Assembly (NCBI GenBank): GCA_009930175.1
Contig: RZYW01000001.1
Span: 4,778-68,777, forward strand
Origin: Clostridia bacterium
GTDB taxonomy: Bacteria > Bacillota > Peptococcia > Peptococcales > SKKY01
DNA: 64,000 bases
Direction of reading: 5' to 3'
The notes below the pieces were generated by a model. It had not been told where the DNA came from and did not search any database. It worked only from the letters and a program-made list of their open reading frames with translations. Made by a program: the position numbers and the translations under genes. Positions 15,356-55,110 of this stretch are shown here, one piece after another; within the stretch, counting starts at the first letter, position 1; each line of letters opens with the position of its first letter.

Positions 15356-15775
15356 TTATGCAAAAAAAAGAGGCTTCTCAGCCTTTTTTTTACTTTCATC
15401 AGTTAGTGAATATAAAATATTTTTTAATTCTTCTAATGCAACATCGAAATCTTTACGAAAATCTTTTAATAAATATTCTTCACCTGTTTCAATATAAGTA
15501 ATAAGCTTTACATAGTTAGTGGATAATTTTTCAATTGATTCTGAAAGATCCTTATAATCCTTAGCTTTAATACTTAATTCGGTTACTTCACTCCATACTT
15601 TTCTGGCTTTTTTAATATCTTTATTTTGAATAGCCATATCAGTTTCTTTTACAAAATTATCTATCATAGAATCCATTTTTTCTTTATCAATTGTATTTTT
15701 GCTGGTACATCCGGTTAAAAATACGACAATTAATAATATAGCAATGATAAAGATACACTTCTTTTTAGCGTTCAT
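15356..15775 (-). CDS. Hypothetical lipoprotein (helical, charged)
   Basis: 139 aa with a signal peptide ending in the lipobox LTGC. I recognise no family. It has its own candidate promoter and terminator. Confidence 0.6.
   Translation of the reverse strand: MNAKKKCIFIIAILLIVVFLTGCTSKNTIDKEKMDSMIDNFVKETDMAIQNKDIKKARKVWSEVTELSIKAKDYKDLSESIEKLSTNYVKLITYIETGEEYLLKDFRKDFDVALEELKNILYSLTDESKKKAEKPLFFA
15362..15392 (-). terminator. Weak terminator-like hairpin in the last codons of the lipoprotein gene
   Basis: The stem AGGCU-gaga-AGCCU is flanked by an A8 run and a U8 run on the minus-strand RNA. The stem is short (5 bp plus A-U extension). Confidence 0.35.
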
Positions 15776-17886: not shown

Positions 17887-18981
17887 TTAACCTCTCACTA
17901 TATTCAAAACAATTTCCATAACTTTAAATAAATCATCTTTTTTCATAAACTCATTTTTAGTATGAATGTTTTCGTAACCCATACCAAGAATAACTGAAGG
18001 AATCCCTTTTTGATTATAGACATTCCCATCACTTCCTCCACCTGCAGATTCAACTTTAGGTACCAGGCCACTTTTTTCAATGGCTTTTTTAGCAAGTTGA
18101 ATAACATGTTCTTCTTCGTTAATTTTAAAATTATCATATTCCTTTGAAAAGCTAAAATCCGGAACTCCTAAATTCTTTTCAGTTATTGTAATAAAAATAT
18201 TTTTTGTCTCATTTAGAAGTTTTTCTGCTTTTTCTTTATTATAACTTCTTATTTCACCTTTAATTATTACTTCTTCAGGAACAATATTAGTTGCAGATCC
18301 TCCAGATATTAAGCCAATATTTGCTGTTGTATCAAAATCAATTCTTCCCCCTGGGAGTTTTGTTATAACTTCTCCTGCAATTTTTATTGCATTTATTCCC
18401 TTTTCAGGTGCAATCCCTGCATGGGATGACTTACCTTTAATCTTACCTTCATAAGTATAATGTACTGGAGCCTCATTAATTATTATTCCAGGTTTACTGC
18501 TGCTATCTAAAATATATGCATAATCTGCAGTTATATTATCAACATTTTTTGCTCCTAGAAGACCAGTTTCTTCAGAAACAGAAAAAACAACTAATATTTC
18601 GCTAGTTTGAATATTTTCTTCCTTTATTTGTTTTATTATTTCTAATAAAATTGCAACTCCAGCTTTATCATCAGCCCCAAGAACAGTGTCTCCCGAAGAA
18701 GTTATTCTATCCATTTCAACGATTGGTTTAACATTTTTCCCTGGGACAACTGTGTCCATATGGGCAGATAGTAAAATTTTACCTGGTAAACTTCCTGGAA
18801 TTTTTATAATTATATTCCCAGTATTCCCACCTGTTTTTTTCCCAGCATTATCTTCTGAAGGATTAAGATCTATTTTTTTCAAATAATCTAATATATAGTC
18901 TGCAACTTCTCTTTCATTCCCTGATTCAGAATCTCTTTTACAAAGTTCAACAAAAGTTTCTATAAGTCTCTCTTTATTCAT
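17887..18981 (-). CDS. M20-family metallopeptidase (tripeptidase/PepT-like)
   Basis: Has the motifs SAHMDTV, GADDKAGVA and SEETG. The likely start is the ATG at 18981 (MNKERL), preceded by GGAGG. The track start at 19011 has no RBS. Confidence 0.75.
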   Translation of the reverse strand: MNKERLIETFVELCKRDSESGNEREVADYILDYLKKIDLNPSEDNAGKKTGGNTGNIIIKIPGSLPGKILLSAHMDTVVPGKNVKPIVEMDRITSSGDTVLGADDKAGVAILLEIIKQIKEENIQTSEILVVFSVSEETGLLGAKNVDNITADYAYILDSSSKPGIIINEAPVHYTYEGKIKGKSSHAGIAPEKGINAIKIAGEVITKLPGGRIDFDTTANIGLISGGSATNIVPEEVIIKGEIRSYNKEKAEKLLNETKNIFITITEKNLGVPDFSFSKEYDNFKINEEEHVIQLAKKAIEKSGLVPKVESAGGGSDGNVYNQKGIPSVILGMGYENIHTKNEFMKKDDLFKVMEIVLNIVRG

Positions 18982-19009
18982 GTTTTTTCCTCCTTTTGGA
19001 AATTGATAC

Positions 19010-19040
19010 AAAAAAACAGCTGGAAAAATTATCCAGCTGT
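19010..19040 (-). terminator. Intrinsic terminator after ilvE
   Basis: The minus-strand RNA ACAGCUGGA-uaauuuu-UCCAGCUGU (9 bp) is followed by U6-7. It begins 6 nt after the ilvE stop. Confidence 0.7.
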
Positions 19041-20167: not shown

Positions 20168-23100
20168 TCAAGCAAAGAAAGAAAGTTGATTATTTTCAGG
20201 GAGTCCCTCAAGAGAACCATGGTTTAACATAGTTTCAATAACCGTCTTACTTACCTTTGCACGAATTCGTAAATCTTCAATAGATTTAAATTCCCTTAAA
20301 TCCCTTTCTTTTTCTATATTTAATGCAGCGGTCTCCCCTATACCAGGCAAAGATCCAAAGGGAGGGATTAATTGATTCCCTTCAATAATAAATCTGTTTG
20401 CAGTGGATTTATCAAGGGAAACAATTTGGAAAGAAAAACCTCGTAAATACATTTCAAGAGCTACTTCTAAAACAATTAACAACCTTATTTCTTTTTGAGA
20501 TGCCTGGTTACCCATTTCCTGAATCTTTTTAATTTCATTTAATACACTTTCCTTACCTTTTACAATAATCTCTGCATCAAACTCTGAGGCTCTAACTGAG
20601 AAAAATGCTGCGTAAAAAGCTAGTGGATGGAAAATTTTAAAATATGCAATTCTAAAAGCCATCATTACATAGGCTACAGCATGTGCTTTTGGAAACATAT
20701 ATTTAATTTTATTACATGATTCAATATACCATTCAGGAACATTAAACTTGCGCATTTCATCTTCGTAATCTTTTTTTAATCCCTTACCTTTTCTTACATC
20801 TTCCATAATCTTAAAAGAAACTAATGGATCAAGATTCATATTTATCAAATAGGTCATTATATCATCTCTGGCAGAAATAGCTTCAGAAAGATGACAAGTC
20901 TTACTTTTTATTAAATCCTGAGCATTATTTAACCATACATCTGTACCATGAGAAAATCCACTAATCCGCACTAAATCAGAAAAGTTTTGTGGTTTTGTAT
21001 CTTCAAGCATTTGTCGTACAAACTTTGTCCCAAACTCGGGGATTCCATAGGTACCAACTTTAGACAGTAATTCTGCTTCTGAAACTCCTAATGCTTTGGT
21101 TGATGAAAATAAGGACATTACTTCTGGATTATCCAATTTTATTTTTCTGGCATCCAGCCCTGTTAAATCTTCTAGCATTTTTATTACAGTAGGATCATCA
21201 TGTCCAAGGATATCCAGCTTTACAAGATAATCATGTAAAGAATGGAAATCAAAGTGGGTAGTTACTGTCCCTGACTTTACGTCTTCGGCTGGTCTTTGAA
21301 GAGGTGTGAAGTCAGAGGCTTCTTTACTTTTTGGAACAACTATAAGCCCCCCTGGATGCTGTCCTGTTGTTCTTTTTACGCCGGTACAACCTTTTATCAG
21401 CCTGCTTAGCTCGGCAGAATTATAATATATATTATTTTCTTCTAAATAATTTTTAACATAACCAAAGGCTGTTTTTTCCGCAACAGTTGCAATTGTGCCT
21501 GCTCTGAAAACGTGATCTTTTCCGAATAATTCTTCTACATACTTATGAGCTGATGCCTGATATTCTCCAGAAAAGTTCAAATCAATATCTGGAACCTTAT
21601 CTCCCTCGAAACCAAGAAAAACTTCAAAAGGAATATCGAATCCATCTTTTTCCAATGGTGTTCCACAATCAGGGCATTCTCTCTCAGGTAAATCAGCTCC
21701 ACTTCCGTATTCCCCTTTTTCAAAAAACTCTGTGAAGTAACAAGAAGGACATCGATAATGCGGAGCAAGAGGATTAACCTCTGTTATCCCAGTTAAAGTA
21801 GCAACCAGTGAAGATCCAACAGAGCCCCTGGACCCTACAAGATACCCATCTTCATTGGATTTTTTAACTAGTTTTTGAGATATTAAATATAAAACAGCAT
21901 ACCCATTACTAATAATTGAATTAAGTTCTTTATTAATTCTTTTAGCAACTATTTCTGGTAAATTTTCCCCATATAACTCTTTTGCTTTTGAAAAAGTCAT
22001 ATCTCTTATTTCATCTTCAGCTCCTTCAATCTCAGGAGGATAAAGCTTATCTGGAATAGGTCTTATTTTTTCAACCATATCAGCAATTAAATTGGGATTT
22101 TTTACTACAACTTCTAAAGCTTTAGATTCATCCAGATAGCAAAACTCTTCCAGCATTTCTTCTGTTGTTCTGTAATACAATGGTGGTTGATTTACAGCGT
22201 CTGTGTATCCTTGTCCAGCCTGAATTATTCTTCTGTAAATAGAATCTTCAGGATTTAAAAAATGCACATCTCCCGTAGCTATTACTGGAATATTTAGTTT
22301 TTCCCCTAACTCAATTACTTTAAGATTTATTTTTTCCAGTTCTTTTTTATCTTTTACTATTCCATTACGAATCATAAATTCATTATTGCCAGTAGGCTGA
22401 ATTTCTAAAAAATCATAAAACTCAGAGATTCTATGAAGTTCATCCTCATCTTTACCTTCAACTATAGAGGTAATTAACTCTCCTGCTTCGCAAGCTGAAC
22501 CAAAAATTAGTCCTTCCCTATATTCAATTAGTAAATCCATGGGAATTCTTGGCACTTTTTTATAATATTTAAGTTGAGATTCTGAAATAAGATGATATAA
22601 ATTTTTTAATCCAACTCTATTTTTAACCAAAATAATAAAGTGATAATTTTTTTTGCCTTTTTTTTCTTTTGTCTCTTCTTTCCTGAACACATAGGCTTCA
22701 ATACCATAAATAATTTTTACACCATGTTTTTCACCGGCAAAATAGGCATCCGGAAAAGCCTGAACAACTCCATGATCAGTAACAGCAATTGCTTTATGTC
22801 CATAAAAAGCAGCTTTTTTTACATAATCATCTACAGGATTCATTGCATCCGTCTTACTCATATTTGTATGAAGATGTAGTTCTACTCTTTTTTCTGGATA
22901 ATTATCTGTTTTTTGTTCTACTATTAATTCTTCATAATTTGAAAGCATTAGAATATACTCTTTTGCAAACTGGTCATGTTGTACATTTCCTGAAAACCTG
23001 TAAAATTTTTCAGTTTTAACATTTGATAATATTTCTTCTGCTTCTTCTTTTTTCTTTATGTACTTTCCAACAATTGAAGATGTACCATCTGTCATTGATA

Positions 23101-23857
23101 TTGATAACAAAATTTTTCCGGTTTTTAACTCCCGGCTTTGAATGTCAAAAACCCTTGATTCAACAACAATATTATTTTCTTCTTCCCGTAGAGAAGATAT
23201 TTCTTTTACTTCACCTTTGTAATTTTTAAGACTGACTTTTTTTGTATTTCTTTTTCTGCCAAACTCATTTTTTTCTTTTTTAGTTTCTGTGTTCTTAGTT
23301 ATTTCCGGAGCTTTTATTTCTGGAAGAAAGTTTTCTATTGTTTGTATCGGGTCAATTTCTTCAAGTTCAGAATCATATACAAAGAGAACATTTCTGGTTT
23401 CACCATCAGAAAAAACTAATTTATCTTTAATTAACATATCTCCATTGTTTTTTTTCAAATAATTATAGGCCCAGGATGATCCGGTTTTAATAATAATTTC
23501 ATTTTTATCCCTGTTATATTCAGTTGTTGTTTTTTGAAAACAATTTCGTAATACAGGGGCCTGGTTTATAAATATTCTATCCATATACTCTTTAATTTTT
23601 GATTCATTATTTAAACAATCACATGTTAATGCAGGAATTAGTTTTATTTTATCCAGCTTTGGAAGTTTCTGAAGAAGAATTTTTTCTCCTTCTTCTAAAG
23701 TACTGTGATCGTATTGTATTTTTGAATAAAAATATATTTCCCAGGCATTCAAAGCCTGGGAAACAGATACTTTACAAATTTCCAGTTCTTTTAAAAAACT
23801 GGAAATCTGACAATTATTTTTTTCATCAAATAGTTCTGCGGGTAATTTGTTACTCAT
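20168..23857 (-). CDS. polC: DNA polymerase III alpha subunit, PolC type, lacking the 3'-5' exonuclease domain
   Basis: 1229 aa and collinear with Bacillus PolC. It has the OB region, PHP motifs ([34 protein letters not shown]), the Zn finger CPSC...[20 protein letters not shown] and KYMFPKAHA. The exonuclease insertion is replaced by [14 protein letters not shown] (aa 392-405). Confidence 0.9.
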
Positions 23858-25550
23858 TTAGATAAAATTCCTTTACTTTTGATATAACCTCATTGATATT
23901 TAAATCTTCTGATTCAGAATTATTTCTTGCTTTGAATTCAACAATTCCTTCAGCTATTTTCTTACCAACAGTAATTCTTAAAGGATAGCCAATAAGATCT
24001 GCATCGTTAAATTTTACACCAATACGCTCTTTACGGTCATCAAGGACAGCCTCAAAACCTTCAGAAAGGAGTGCTGAATACAACTTCTCTGCTTCCTGGA
24101 ACTGTACTTCATCATTTACCTGAACAGGAACTACAACTACTTGATAAGGAGCAATATTTTTAGGCCAGATAATACCTTTTTCATCATAATTTTGCTCTAC
24201 GCAGGCAGCCATTGTTCTGGAAACACCAATACCATAGCAGCCCATAACCATTATCTGTTCTTTGCCATTTTCATCTAAATACTTTGCATTTAATTTTTCT
24301 GAATACTTTGTCCCTAGTTTAAATACCTGGCCAACTTCTATTCCTTTAGCAAAAACAAGATTTCCACCACATTTTGGGCAGGAGTCCCCTTCATTAACTT
24401 CTCTTAGATCATAGAATTCTACTTTACCAAAATCTCGGTTAACATCTGCATGAAGATAATGGTAACCTTCTTCATTCGCACCACAAACTCCATCATTCAT
24501 ATATTTAAGTTCATTGTCTGCATAAATAGTAATATCTTTTAAACCAATTGGTGAGATATAGCCTGGTTCACAATTGAACAATTCTTTTATCTCTTCTTCT
24601 TCAGCTTTTTCAAGAATATCAGTTTTTAATACTCTTTTTAACTTAATTTCGTTTAGAGATCTGTCCCCTCTTATAACAACTACAATTATTTTCTCATCTG
24701 CTTTAAAAACTAAAGTTTTAATCGTATTATCTCCAGATACCTTTAAGAATTCTGCTACTTCTTCGATTGTTTTTTTATCTGGAGTGGATACTTTTTCTAA
24801 TTCCTTGCTTTCAGAAATTTCTCTCTCTGGAGTAATACATTCTGTAATCTCTACATTAGAAGCATATGAGCATTTTTCACAATATGCTATTGTTGCCTCA
24901 CCATTTTCTGCCAATACCATAAATTCATGGGTATCATCCCCACCAATGGCTCCAGAATCAGCTTCAACTGCTCTAAAATTTAAGCCCATTCTGCCAAAAA
25001 TTCTACTATAGGCATCGTACATAGTCTGGTACGAAACATCAAGACCAGCAAAATCACGATCAAAGGAATAGGCATCTTTCATAATAAACTCTCTGCCTCT
25101 CATTAATCCAAATCTAGGTCTTCTTTCATCTCTGTACTTATTTTGAATTTGATATAAATTTAAAGGAAGTTGCTTGTATGATTTTACTTCGCCTCTTACT
25201 ACATCAGTAATTATTTCTTCATGAGTTGGTCCAAGGCAAAAATCTCTGTCATGTCTGTCTTTCAATCTAAACATTTCGTCTCCGTAAACATCCCATCTTC
25301 CACTTTCAGCCCATAACTCTGCTGGCTGAATAATTGGAAGAAGAAGTTCCTGGGCTTCAGATCTATCCATTTCTTCTCTGACAATAGTTTCTATTTTTTT
25401 TAGAACTCTTAAGGCTAATGGAAGATAACTGTATATTCCCGCTGCGCTTTTTCTAATAAAACCTGCTTTTACAAGGAGCTGGTGACTGATAATTTCAGCT
25501 TCTGCTGGAACATCTCTTAGTGTAGGTAATAATGCTTTAGTTACTCTCAT
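23850..25550 (-). CDS. proS: Prolyl-tRNA synthetase (bacterial type with INS editing domain)
   Basis: 566 aa with class II motifs ([25 protein letters not shown]). Its stop overlaps the polC start (ATGAGTAA). Confidence 0.95.
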
Positions 25551-53753: not shown

Positions 53754-55073
53754 TTACGCCAGGACTTCTAGTCCTCCTGAATTATTGAAAATGCTTTCAA
53801 TTTTTTCTTCAAAGGATTGAGCGTCATTTGAGCTGTTTCCTTCTTTTCTGTTTGAGTTACCAGAAAAACTTTGATTTGAGCCGTTAAAATGATTGAAATT
53901 CTTTTCAAAATCGATCTCAATATTAAAAGCACCATTTCTGATTCCACTGCTTTCAAGATTGTTTCTCAATGTTGATAAGTTTGTATCCAAAAATTCTTTA
54001 ATATTACGGCTTTCAGCAACAATTTTTACTGTCATTTCTGAATCTTCTGTAGCAGATATTTTTAATGTAAGTTTACCAAGATGTTCTGGATTGATTTTTA
54101 CTGTAATTTCTCTGTAACCTGCTTCTCCAGTTTTAAAACTATTTTTTATTTGATTTTCAATGTACCTGGGAAGATTTCTCGGCTCTACTTTTTCTTGAAC
54201 TTTTTGCGAATCTGTTAGTTTGCTGATGTTTTCATCAAGACTCTTTTGGAAAGATAAATTTGATTTATCAGCTGTCTGCTCTGCTCCAGCTTTAATTTCT
54301 GAATTCTGATTACTTTGTGAGTTTACTTCTGCCCTGGCTTCTTTTAATCTTTCAGTTTTTTTAGAAACTTCCTGAATTCCATCATCTTTAATAAGATTAA
54401 CCACCGGAGTGTCTTTCAAAGAAAAATTCTGAACTATATCTTTTAAAGATATAAGCTTATTTAATCCTTGGGAAACATCTTTATTTACTGTTTCTTTTAA
54501 AATACCAGTAAGTTCTTTACCTAATAGACTTGTAAATTCAGCTTTGTCTTTTAAAGATAATTCCTTAATATTATCTTCTGAAAATATTTTTTCAAGAAAT
54601 TTTGCTGGTAAAAGATTGTTATCCTTAAAAAGATTAATCAGCTTGTCTTTAAGAAGGCCAAATTCTTCGGGAACATCAACATCTTTTATATCAGACAAAT
54701 GTTTCATAATTTTTTCCTGAAGATTTTCATTTAGATTTTTCGGAAGATTTTCTAATGCAGTTTTTAATTCTTCTATCTCCCCATCTTCATTCCCCTGAAC
54801 ATTAAGCAAGGCCTCGATTAAAGTTCCATAAACTCCCATGCTTTCCATAACTTCGGATGATTCTTCCCCTTCTTCTGAAGTTATTCCAGGCAAATCACCA
54901 TCTACCCCAGCTTTTTGAGAAAGATTTCCAGAACCTAAAAGACCTGCCAGTACGTTATCAAAGGATTTTCCTTCACCGCTACCCCCAAAAGGATTTGATG
55001 AGCCTATACTCTTTGACATACTGACAGGTCCCGAAACCTGAACAAATGATAATATTTGCATTCCTGTATTCAA
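53754..55073 (-). CDS. fliK: Flagellar hook-length control protein FliK
   Basis: The C-terminal Flg_hook-type domain (ITVKINPEHLGKLTLKISA...TVKIVAES...LRNNLESSG) follows a low-complexity N-terminal part. The GTG at 55082 abuts GGGAGG, so the TTG at 55073 (8-nt spacer) is the more plausible start. Confidence 0.75.
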   Translation of the reverse strand: MNTGMQILSFVQVSGPVSMSKSIGSSNPFGGSGEGKSFDNVLAGLLGSGNLSQKAGVDGDLPGITSEEGEESSEVMESMGVYGTLIEALLNVQGNEDGEIEELKTALENLPKNLNENLQEKIMKHLSDIKDVDVPEEFGLLKDKLINLFKDNNLLPAKFLEKIFSEDNIKELSLKDKAEFTSLLGKELTGILKETVNKDVSQGLNKLISLKDIVQNFSLKDTPVVNLIKDDGIQEVSKKTERLKEARAEVNSQSNQNSEIKAGAEQTADKSNLSFQKSLDENISKLTDSQKVQEKVEPRNLPRYIENQIKNSFKTGEAGYREITVKINPEHLGKLTLKISATEDSEMTVKIVAESRNIKEFLDTNLSTLRNNLESSGIRNGAFNIEIDFEKNFNHFNGSNQSFSGNSNRKEGNSSNDAQSFEEKIESIFNNSGGLEVLA

Positions 55074-55110
55074 TTTTTTCACCTCCCTGCCCGATAAGAT
55101 TGCTGCAGTT

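Follow-up and report, generated by a model that had tools for sequence, protein, structure and literature searches.

A natural PolC-type DNA polymerase III without the DnaQ-like exonuclease domain in a Clostridia bacterium, and its PHP domain as a candidate proofreader

The DNA analysed here (hereafter the window) is a stretch of 64,000 nt from contig RZYW01000001.1 (assembly GCA_009930175.1) of a Clostridia bacterium. At positions 20168-23857 of its minus strand lies an open reading frame (ORF) of 1229 codons, opening with ATG, which specifies a PolC-type DNA polymerase III alpha subunit. It is the organism's orthologous chromosomal polC gene; in its product the DEDDh (DnaQ-like) exonuclease module of canonical PolC (Exo) is replaced by a loop of 16 residues, and the other features tested are kept. 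That this is a real, functional and orthologous PolC devoid of Exo is almost certain. The architecture itself is already known, having been catalogued in 2013-14, and this very protein has already been deposited as a PolC-type DNA polymerase III; as an instance it holds nothing qualitatively new relative to the published catalogue. What is added here is a count of recurrent Exo losses and the finding that Exo loss is enriched where the active site of the PHP domain is intact. The latter domain is considered below as the candidate proofreader of the enzyme.

Architecture of the protein and of the exonuclease insertion site

A first-pass annotation, made by reading the sequence, had described the ORF as collinear with PolC along its whole length. 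Equivalog hidden Markov models (HMMs) and alignments to solved structures agreed with this. The protein scored 1603 bits against the NCBIfam PolC equivalog NF001688 (cut-off 873) and 1457 bits against a second one, TIGR01405 (cut-off 1043), both matches being split into two stretches with ∼200 profile positions skipped (query residue 396 leads on to profile position 606). It is identical to GenBank entry NCC80668.1, a 'PolC-type DNA polymerase III' from a Clostridia bacterium metagenome-assembled genome (MAG). Pfam matches above cut-off were obtained for PHP, DNA_pol3_alpha, DNA_pol3_finger and HHH_6. An N-terminal domain and an OB fold had been claimed as well; both were detected, collinear with PolC, but with Pfam scores below the gathering cut-offs (22.2 bits against 27 for OB, 18.8 against 22 for PolC N-terminus I), and the OB region pairs with the OB domain of PDB structure 3f2b from residue 217 on. 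The domain order, in which these two sub-gathering matches are included, is that of PolC: the N-terminal and OB domains precede PHP, and Pol3 and the helix-hairpin-helix (HhH) domain follow. Neither the Pfam order nor the 3f2b alignment revealed the C-terminal OB and C-terminal domain that mark DnaE-type enzymes.

The motifs quoted by the first-pass annotation, those of the PHP domain and the Zn finger included, were all found in the translation. The catalytic aspartates D757 and D759 (VPDIDLN) and D887 (GHDDPT) occupy columns that are invariant among 121 homologues (the set defined below), and the Zn-finger cysteines line up with the same cysteines in 3f2b and in the E. faecium PolC structure 9qpc. 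The C-terminal motif QLSFF belongs to the QxxLF class of beta-clamp-binding motifs described in Timinskas et al. (NAR 2014) and in a 2026 NAR survey of bacterial polymerases; in relatives the corresponding residues are QLSFF, QLSLF or QLALF. Coordinates of all these features are collected in Table 1.

In canonical PolC a DEDDh exonuclease of 211 residues is inserted between strands 3 and 4 of the PHP domain. To describe this site, the linker was defined as the segment running from the Tyr of G-x-E-x-Y to the next conserved His, and was compared in the 120 best-scoring clusters of a 5.8-billion-protein collection plus the protein encoded in the window. The linkers were either short (8-21 residues, 82 of the 121 proteins) or long (210-214 residues, the other 39). 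With its Lys/Glu-rich linker of 16 residues (V390-Y405) at the place where canonical PolC carries its ∼211-residue DnaQ-like exonuclease, the present protein therefore lacks ∼195 residues relative to its Exo-containing (Exo+) relatives, in line with the clean loss of the whole DEDDh module and the shortfall of some 200 residues that had been proposed. The linker peptide had been assigned to positions 22643-22684, which was exact.

The absence of Exo motifs from the ORF, likewise claimed at first pass, was borne out by profile searches. Pfam returned no RNase_T (PF00929) match in the 1229-residue protein, even at E ≤ 1. An HMM built from the Exo domains of the 39 Exo+ PolCs, used without any filter to search all stop-to-stop peptides of 30 residues or more from the six frames of the window, found nothing either (best E = 0.37). 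The idea of a hidden or degenerate Exo remnant was rejected on these two results. Alignment to full-length E. faecium PolC (9qpc) paired query residues 220-392 with chain residues 256-430 and query residues 400-1228 with chain residues 635-1471. Alignment to 3f2b, an engineered, Exo-deleted G. kaustophilus PolC, gave a single unbroken stretch (query 217-1228, 1254 bits), so that the protein is also collinear with the Geobacillus enzyme. Since the hallmark of canonical PolC, a DnaQ-like DEDDh domain inserted in PHP, is missing, the protein is to be classed under the Exo-less sub-architecture; it fits that of Timinskas et al., being PolC by sequence and having no Exo insertion.

Two A8 homopolymer runs (GAAAAAAAAGGCAAAAAAAAT) occur in the segment encoding the linker (22643-22690, minus strand), where they could plausibly promote indel errors in long-read data. 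The runs are absent from the two closest relatives located in a scan of one genome per species, namely a Peptococcia bacterium MAG consisting of a complete 1.9-Mb chromosome (L002, OZ245787.1; PolC 89% identical) and an uncultured Eubacteriales MAG (L001; PolC 80% identical), which both encode the same Lys-rich loop with interrupted codons. The runs thus reflect composition and do not mark a conserved slippage site. An antisense ORF of 79 codons lying wholly inside polC (22640-22879, plus strand) was regarded as spurious, its product being of low complexity and rich in Phe, Ile and Asn.

The classic metal-binding motifs of the PHP domain had been said to be retained, and indeed nine of nine ligands are present (Table 1). 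In order they read HHDHEHCDH, which conforms to HHDHEH[C/H]DH, the signature of an 'active' PHP site in the 2026 NAR survey. None of the nine columns varies among the 39 Exo+ and 82 Exo-less homologues, apart from a gap at H328 and H330 in one truncated Exo-less protein. The position of D530 is occupied by Asn in both G. kaustophilus and E. faecium PolC, according to the alignments to their structures. An AlphaFold2 (AF2) model of residues 318-612, computed with 61 Exo-less homologues as input, had a mean predicted local distance difference test score (pLDDT) of 91.8. In it the linker forms a loop of lower confidence (block mean pLDDT 71-77) that joins two adjacent strands (residues 64-74 and 88-94 of the fragment). 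The PHP barrel is thus predicted to be folded and uninterrupted, with the loop lying beside the active site. The best Foldseek match of the model was the PHP domain of 3f2b (template modelling (TM) score 0.88, root-mean-square deviation 2.3 Å over 300 columns), followed by full-length E. faecium PolC, with a gap of ∼190 columns, and then by DnaE-type PHP domains (DnaE1, TM 0.72-0.81).

Table 1. Coordinates of polC, its domains and motifs, and the adjoining proS gene (window numbering)
Feature	Position	Strand	Basis
polC (PolC-type DNA polymerase III alpha subunit, Exo-less architecture)	20168..23857	-	ORF, NCBIfam and exact database sequence
OB domain, N-terminal to PHP	22928..23167	-	Pfam tRNA_anti-codon, residues 231-310, E = 1.4e-4, below gathering score
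PHP domain, N-terminal part (R324-Y389; ligands H328, H330, D361, H362, E387)	22691..22888	-	Pfam PHP, E = 8e-33
16-residue loop V390-Y405 at the Exo insertion site	22643..22690	-	linker length compared with Exo+ relatives; coordinates verified
PHP domain, C-terminal part (H406-P600; ligands H406, C456, D530, H532)	22058..22642	-	Pfam, ligand columns and AF2 model
Polymerase core (palm, thumb, fingers)	20771..22012	-	Pfam DNA_pol3_alpha, E = 3e-60; DNA_pol3_finger, E = 3.8e-24
PolC-specific four-Cys Zn finger C703, C706, C728, C731 (CPSC...CPDC)	21665..21751	-	read from translation
Tandem helix-hairpin-helix domain	20192..20413	-	Pfam HHH_6, E = 8e-10
C-terminal beta-clamp-binding motif QLSFF (Q1224-F1228)	20174..20188	-	read from sequence
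proS (proline-tRNA ligase)	23850..25550	-	NCBIfam NF006625, 853 bits

Distribution of the exonuclease domain among PolC relatives

The first-pass annotation had raised the question of whether relatives share the deletion. Exo loss is widespread: Exo-less proteins dominate among the nearest relatives of the present PolC (82 of the 121 nearest clusters), and they include those of Neomoorella thermoacetica (P0081, 1214 residues), Heliophilum fasciatum (P0038), Candidatus Formimonas warabiya (P0067), Desulfitispora alkaliphila (P0061) and Zhaonellaceae. Two further MAGs (L003 and L004), one of Selenomonadaceae and one of Clostridiales, also encode Exo-less PolCs. When cluster representatives at 50% identity covering the region were considered, 30 of 142 were Exo-less. 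In the survey of Timinskas et al. (2014), 6% of PolCs had no Exo insertion, and these came, apart from one extra copy in Thermotogae, from Clostridia and Negativicutes, in which PolC is paired with DnaE1. The present host is of the same kind, NCC80668.1 deriving from a Clostridia MAG and the nearest genomes being Peptococcia and Eubacteriales MAGs.

A neighbour-joining tree was computed for the closer homologue set from 1157 shared columns, with the insertion excluded and no outgroup. At least five changes of Exo state were needed in 98 of 100 bootstraps. Exo-less sequences were nested within Exo+ groups with 88-100% support, the protein of the window grouping with other Exo-less PolCs, and the PolCs of Bacilli, Mollicutes, Fusobacteria and Thermotogae are Exo+ as well. 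The simplest reading of this nesting is that Exo was lost repeatedly and independently, each time with precise boundaries; on these sequence comparisons the loss looks recurrent, with at least five events among the nearest relatives. A wider neighbour-joining set of 136 representatives at 50% identity required 14-21 changes with an Exo+ midpoint root, but it was poorly resolved; the figure was judged to be inflated for that reason and was not relied upon.

Among the 50% identity representatives plus the present protein, all nine PHP ligands were found in 28 of 31 Exo-less PolCs and in 69 of 112 Exo+ ones (odds ratio 5.8, Fisher P = 0.002, uncorrected for phylogeny). The three Exo-less PolC-like representatives with a degenerate PHP site are P0229, P0219 and P0241. 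In the first of them (1178 residues) the nine ligand positions read HRDLENTDQ, but PDIDLNF and the Zn finger are retained, which makes this protein a candidate PolC with no proofreader in cis at all. The other two (854 and 895 residues, respectively) are probably fragments whose polymerase motifs deviate too (PDIQLNF, NELGHDN, DILPHEV), and they may be inactive paralogues or pseudogenes.

Candidate sources of proofreading

The reading favoured here is that the Exo-less PolC would proofread in cis by means of the trinuclear metal centre of its PHP domain, for which all nine ligands are intact, in the way that M. tuberculosis DnaE1 and the Thermus Pol III alpha subunits do. The enzymes with nine ligands examined by Banos-Mateos et al. 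(2017), i.e. M. tuberculosis DnaE1, the Pol III alpha subunits of T. aquaticus and T. thermophilus, and PolX, are exonucleases, while G. kaustophilus PolC, which has one ligand mutated, shows no PHP exonuclease activity. The same authors noted that the Exo domain of PolC is inserted in the loop lining the groove that leads to the PHP active site, a loop of 29 residues in M. tuberculosis and 18 in T. aquaticus; in the present protein the basic loop of 16 residues may take its part. Clostridia-type PolCs would then hold two redundant proofreaders, PHP and DnaQ, and this redundancy could have let the DnaQ module be excised repeatedly, the lineage of the window being one case. In the PolCs of PolC+DnaE3 (Bacilli-type) systems the PHP site is often dead (2026 NAR survey). 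By analogy with the nine-ligand exonucleases, and with the confidently modelled PHP fold and the higher share of complete ligand sets among Exo-less PolCs also in its favour, the PHP site is, on balance, probably the cis proofreader of this PolC. The broader proposition, according to which PHP would be the sole and fully competent cis proofreader of Exo-less PolCs generally, and DnaQ a dispensable add-on excised many times and mostly where PHP was intact, has about an even chance of being correct.

Several observations weigh against PHP proofreading in this enzyme. The literature searched contains no demonstration of exonuclease activity for the PHP domain of any PolC, Exo+ or Exo-less, and intact PHP ligands are necessary for such activity but not sufficient. 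Nor is their retention specific to Exo-less proteins, as the 69 Exo+ PolCs with nine of nine ligands illustrate. A DnaQ-like protein or a DnaE1 encoded outside the window could supply or replace proofreading. The trees from which Exo loss was counted are neighbour-joining trees only, built with no outgroup. Finally, when the 82 Exo-less proteins were compared with the 39 Exo+ ones, no column outside the insertion combined a conservation of at least 80% with a difference between the two groups; the rest of the enzyme thus does not appear to have been remodelled, and there is no sign of compensatory adaptation in PHP. The possibility of compensatory changes elsewhere in Exo-less PolCs was rejected on the same comparison.

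Proofreading might instead be provided in trans, which the first-pass annotation had offered along with PHP as one of two routes, by a separate DnaQ-like DEDDh exonuclease that binds PolC as epsilon binds the E. coli alpha subunit. Such an exonuclease could even be a split-off PolC Exo module, PHP then having a structural or some other role, e.g. as a pyrophosphatase. Replicases of the E. coli type work in this manner, and stand-alone DnaQ homologues number more than three per proteome on average (2026 NAR survey). In addition, most Exo+ Clostridial PolCs keep their PHP ligands too, so these can persist for reasons beyond a role as sole proofreader. Against this, the six-frame search detected no Exo-like ORF or fragment in the window, none occurs among the annotated genes ∼14 kb to either side of polC, and an intact PHP site is over-represented among Exo-less PolCs. 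Moreover, we know of no epsilon-type partner of any PolC. Taken together, this makes a trans-acting exonuclease unlikely, if still worth considering.

Another possibility is that PolC is not the bulk replicase, most of the chromosome being copied by a DnaE1 with an active PHP and/or an epsilon partner, and that lower fidelity is tolerated in a PolC with a minor or specialised role. Timinskas et al. (2014) asked whether DnaE1 might be the main replicase, pointing out that Clostridial DnaE1 lacks none of the features of a stand-alone replicase and that some Clostridia have DnaE1 only; all their Exo-less PolCs come from genomes encoding both PolC and DnaE1. The whole-gene ratio of non-synonymous to synonymous substitution rates (dN/dS) of ∼0.05, the intact clamp-binding and catalytic motifs and the retention of the canonical locus speak against such a role, as do the 65 co-oriented ORFs and the strong GC skew of the window, although neither set of observations is decisive. 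Extreme strand bias of this sort has been linked to PolC-type replication. A predominant DnaE1 is considered decidedly improbable; it is in any case compatible with proofreading by PHP.

How the PolC+DnaE1 replisome works, and whether PHP proofreads in PolC, are questions raised by Timinskas et al. A natural PolC whose only candidate proofreader in cis is the PHP site offers a clean test case, and this protein or that of a culturable relative, e.g. Moorella thermoacetica, a natural test system. Should a PHP-dependent 3′-5′ exonuclease be found, PHP proofreading, so far demonstrated for DnaE1 and PolX, would extend to the PolC branch, and the dispensability of the DnaQ module would be explained; if PHP were the sole proofreader, Exo loss would represent a repeated evolutionary return to the ancestral proofreading mode of the C family. 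Should PHP prove inactive, these bacteria would have a trans-acting or DnaE1-based fidelity system of a so far undescribed kind. Exo-less PolCs may also suit structural work, as they resemble the construct from which the first crystal structure of a PolC was obtained.

The polC locus, its authenticity and its known counterparts

The start of polC is overlapped for 8 nt by the stop of proS (23850-23857, ATGAGTAA), which suggests that the two genes are translationally coupled; judging from the match coordinates, proS and polC appear to overlap in a similar way in L001 and L002. Upstream of polC the genes identified were dxr, rseP, ispG and proS, and then ORFs corresponding to uppS and cdsA; the next ones (frr, pyrH, tsf and rpsB) were labelled by position and length only. 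Farther upstream come genes for a sigma factor, cheB, flhF/G, flhA/B, fliP, fliM/N, flgE, fliI, fliG, fliF and an HslU-like AAA ATPase. Downstream lie ilvE, genes for a PepT-like peptidase, a Nudix hydrolase and an amino-acid carrier, yebC and ruvCAB, and farther on queA, tgt, yajC, secDF, recJ and relA. The order uppS-cdsA-dxr-rseP-ispG-proS-polC-ilvE is common to the window, L001 and L002. The canonical surroundings of polC in B. subtilis, i.e. hslU, fla/che, sigD and rpsB-tsf-pyrH-frr-uppS-cdsA-dxr-rseP-proS-polC, follow the same long-range order, the fla/che operon of the window lying directly upstream of its rpsB...proS-polC block. This conserved synteny identifies the gene as the polC orthologue rather than a stray copy. 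No dnaE, dnaQ or second polC was found within the window.

It could nevertheless be argued that the ORF is a second, degenerate polC paralogue in a genome whose canonical Exo+ polC lies elsewhere. Timinskas et al. (2014) do list rare genomes with two PolCs, and the sole Exo-less PolC that they found outside Clostridia and Negativicutes, that of Thermotogae, is an additional copy. However, the present gene fills the ancestral slot beside proS in a long conserved housekeeping block, its active-site residues are all intact, and it is under strong purifying selection, with pairwise whole-gene dN/dS values of 0.046-0.084 among the window, L001 and L002 (dS being near saturation). In the 2014 survey, furthermore, only one Clostridial genome had two PolCs, yet 6% of PolCs were Exo-less, so that most Exo-less PolCs must be the only copy. 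A paralogue is therefore very improbable.

That the domain is missing through a sequencing error, or through collapse or deletion at the A-rich linker during assembly, might be suggested by the two A8 runs and by the origin of the sequence in a MAG, but the likelihood of this is negligible: independent assemblies from NCBI, ENA, JGI and Logan contain the same 1229-residue protein (its 90% identity cluster has members of this length from NCBI, ENA and several Logan assemblies), L001 and L002 have the same 16-residue loop in frame with different codons at the junction and no conserved A8 runs, Exo is absent from relatives at 90, 89, 82, 80, 79 and 66-68% identity (linkers of 8-17 residues), and the architecture recurs in dozens of named species, among them Moorella thermoacetica, Heliophilum fasciatum and Ca. 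Formimonas warabiya. The frame is continuous in the window and kept in both relatives, as the first-pass annotation had held in dismissing a frameshift. With the independent assemblies, the diverged codons and the low dN/dS, assembly collapse is effectively excluded, and it was rejected together with a frameshift.

All 65 non-overlapping ORFs of at least 80 codons in the window (1-64000) are on the minus strand. Over its whole length the plus strand shows a strongly negative GC skew (-0.15 to -0.24), together with a negative AT skew; the coding strand, which is probably the leading strand, is therefore rich in purines, and genes are 100% co-directional over 64 kb. Such a bias is of note in a genome whose PolC has no Exo.

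Some further observations were made in the surrounding DNA. The large fla/che operon (33258-64000) includes fliN/Y, a flhG-like gene, a sigma-28-like factor and FapA, and is preceded by the HslU-like AAA ATPase; within it, a 442-codon ORF (53754-55082, minus strand) had no Pfam match at E ≤ 1e-15 and may encode a hook-length or FliK-like protein. Both the window and L002 have the gene for the PepT-like M20 peptidase (17887-19011 in the window) between ilvE and the Nudix gene; L001 (14839-14907) lacks it in an otherwise collinear block. Neither NCBIfam nor Pfam gave a match at E ≤ 1e-8 for a 139-codon ORF (15356-15775, minus strand) that lies between yebC and the amino-acid carrier gene. Scans of the window for tRNA genes and Rfam families were empty. 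Positions 1-1440 contain no complete ORF of at least 80 codons, and no tRNA or Rfam match, and probably belong to a gene running off the edge of the window.

Compared with the canonical PolCs of B. subtilis, S. aureus and E. faecium (9qpc), the present protein is collinear on both sides of the insertion (its residues 400-1228 score 1034 bits against E. faecium PolC) and its gene occupies the same position beside proS. The canonical enzymes differ in having the 211-residue DEDDh domain, and in that the PHP site, intact in the present protein, is often inactivated in the Bacilli-type systems. M. tuberculosis DnaE1 and the Thermus Pol III alpha subunits share with it an uninterrupted PHP barrel, a trinuclear site with nine ligands and the fold (TMq 0.72-0.81), and have a loop of 18-29 residues, against 16 here, in the same topological position beside the active site. 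They belong, however, to the DnaE branch, with a C-terminal OB domain and neither the Zn finger nor the N-terminal domain of PolC, and their exonuclease activity has been demonstrated, while that of the present PolC is a predicted property. In the G. kaustophilus construct made for crystallisation (PDB 3f2b, 3f2c and 3f2d; Evans et al. 2008) Exo was removed by design, and a short artificial linker bridges the same two PHP strands with nearly identical deletion boundaries. That deletion is man-made, and the construct has Asn at the eighth ligand position, where the natural protein has D530 and with it all nine ligands.

The closest counterparts are the natural Exo-less PolCs of Timinskas et al. 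(2014). The first-pass annotation knew of no characterised exonuclease-less PolC; this holds insofar as a full-text literature search found no biochemical study of a natural one, but the novelty it implied does not, such proteins having been listed in that survey. They have the same order of domains (N-terminal domain, OB, uninterrupted PHP, Pol3, HhH), linkers of 8-21 residues, the same nine PHP ligands, the same clamp-binding motif and hosts of the same taxonomic type, the named examples being 50-58% identical to the present protein over their full length. The difference lies in the linker: the clade formed by the window, L001, L002 and P0001-P0007 has a Lys/Glu-rich loop of 16-17 residues, whereas most other Exo-less linkers begin with L-[IV]-D-D, as those of Exo+ proteins do. 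The present host, an uncultured bacterium, has a GC content of 33%, and the genome of its closest complete relative measures ∼1.9 Mb.

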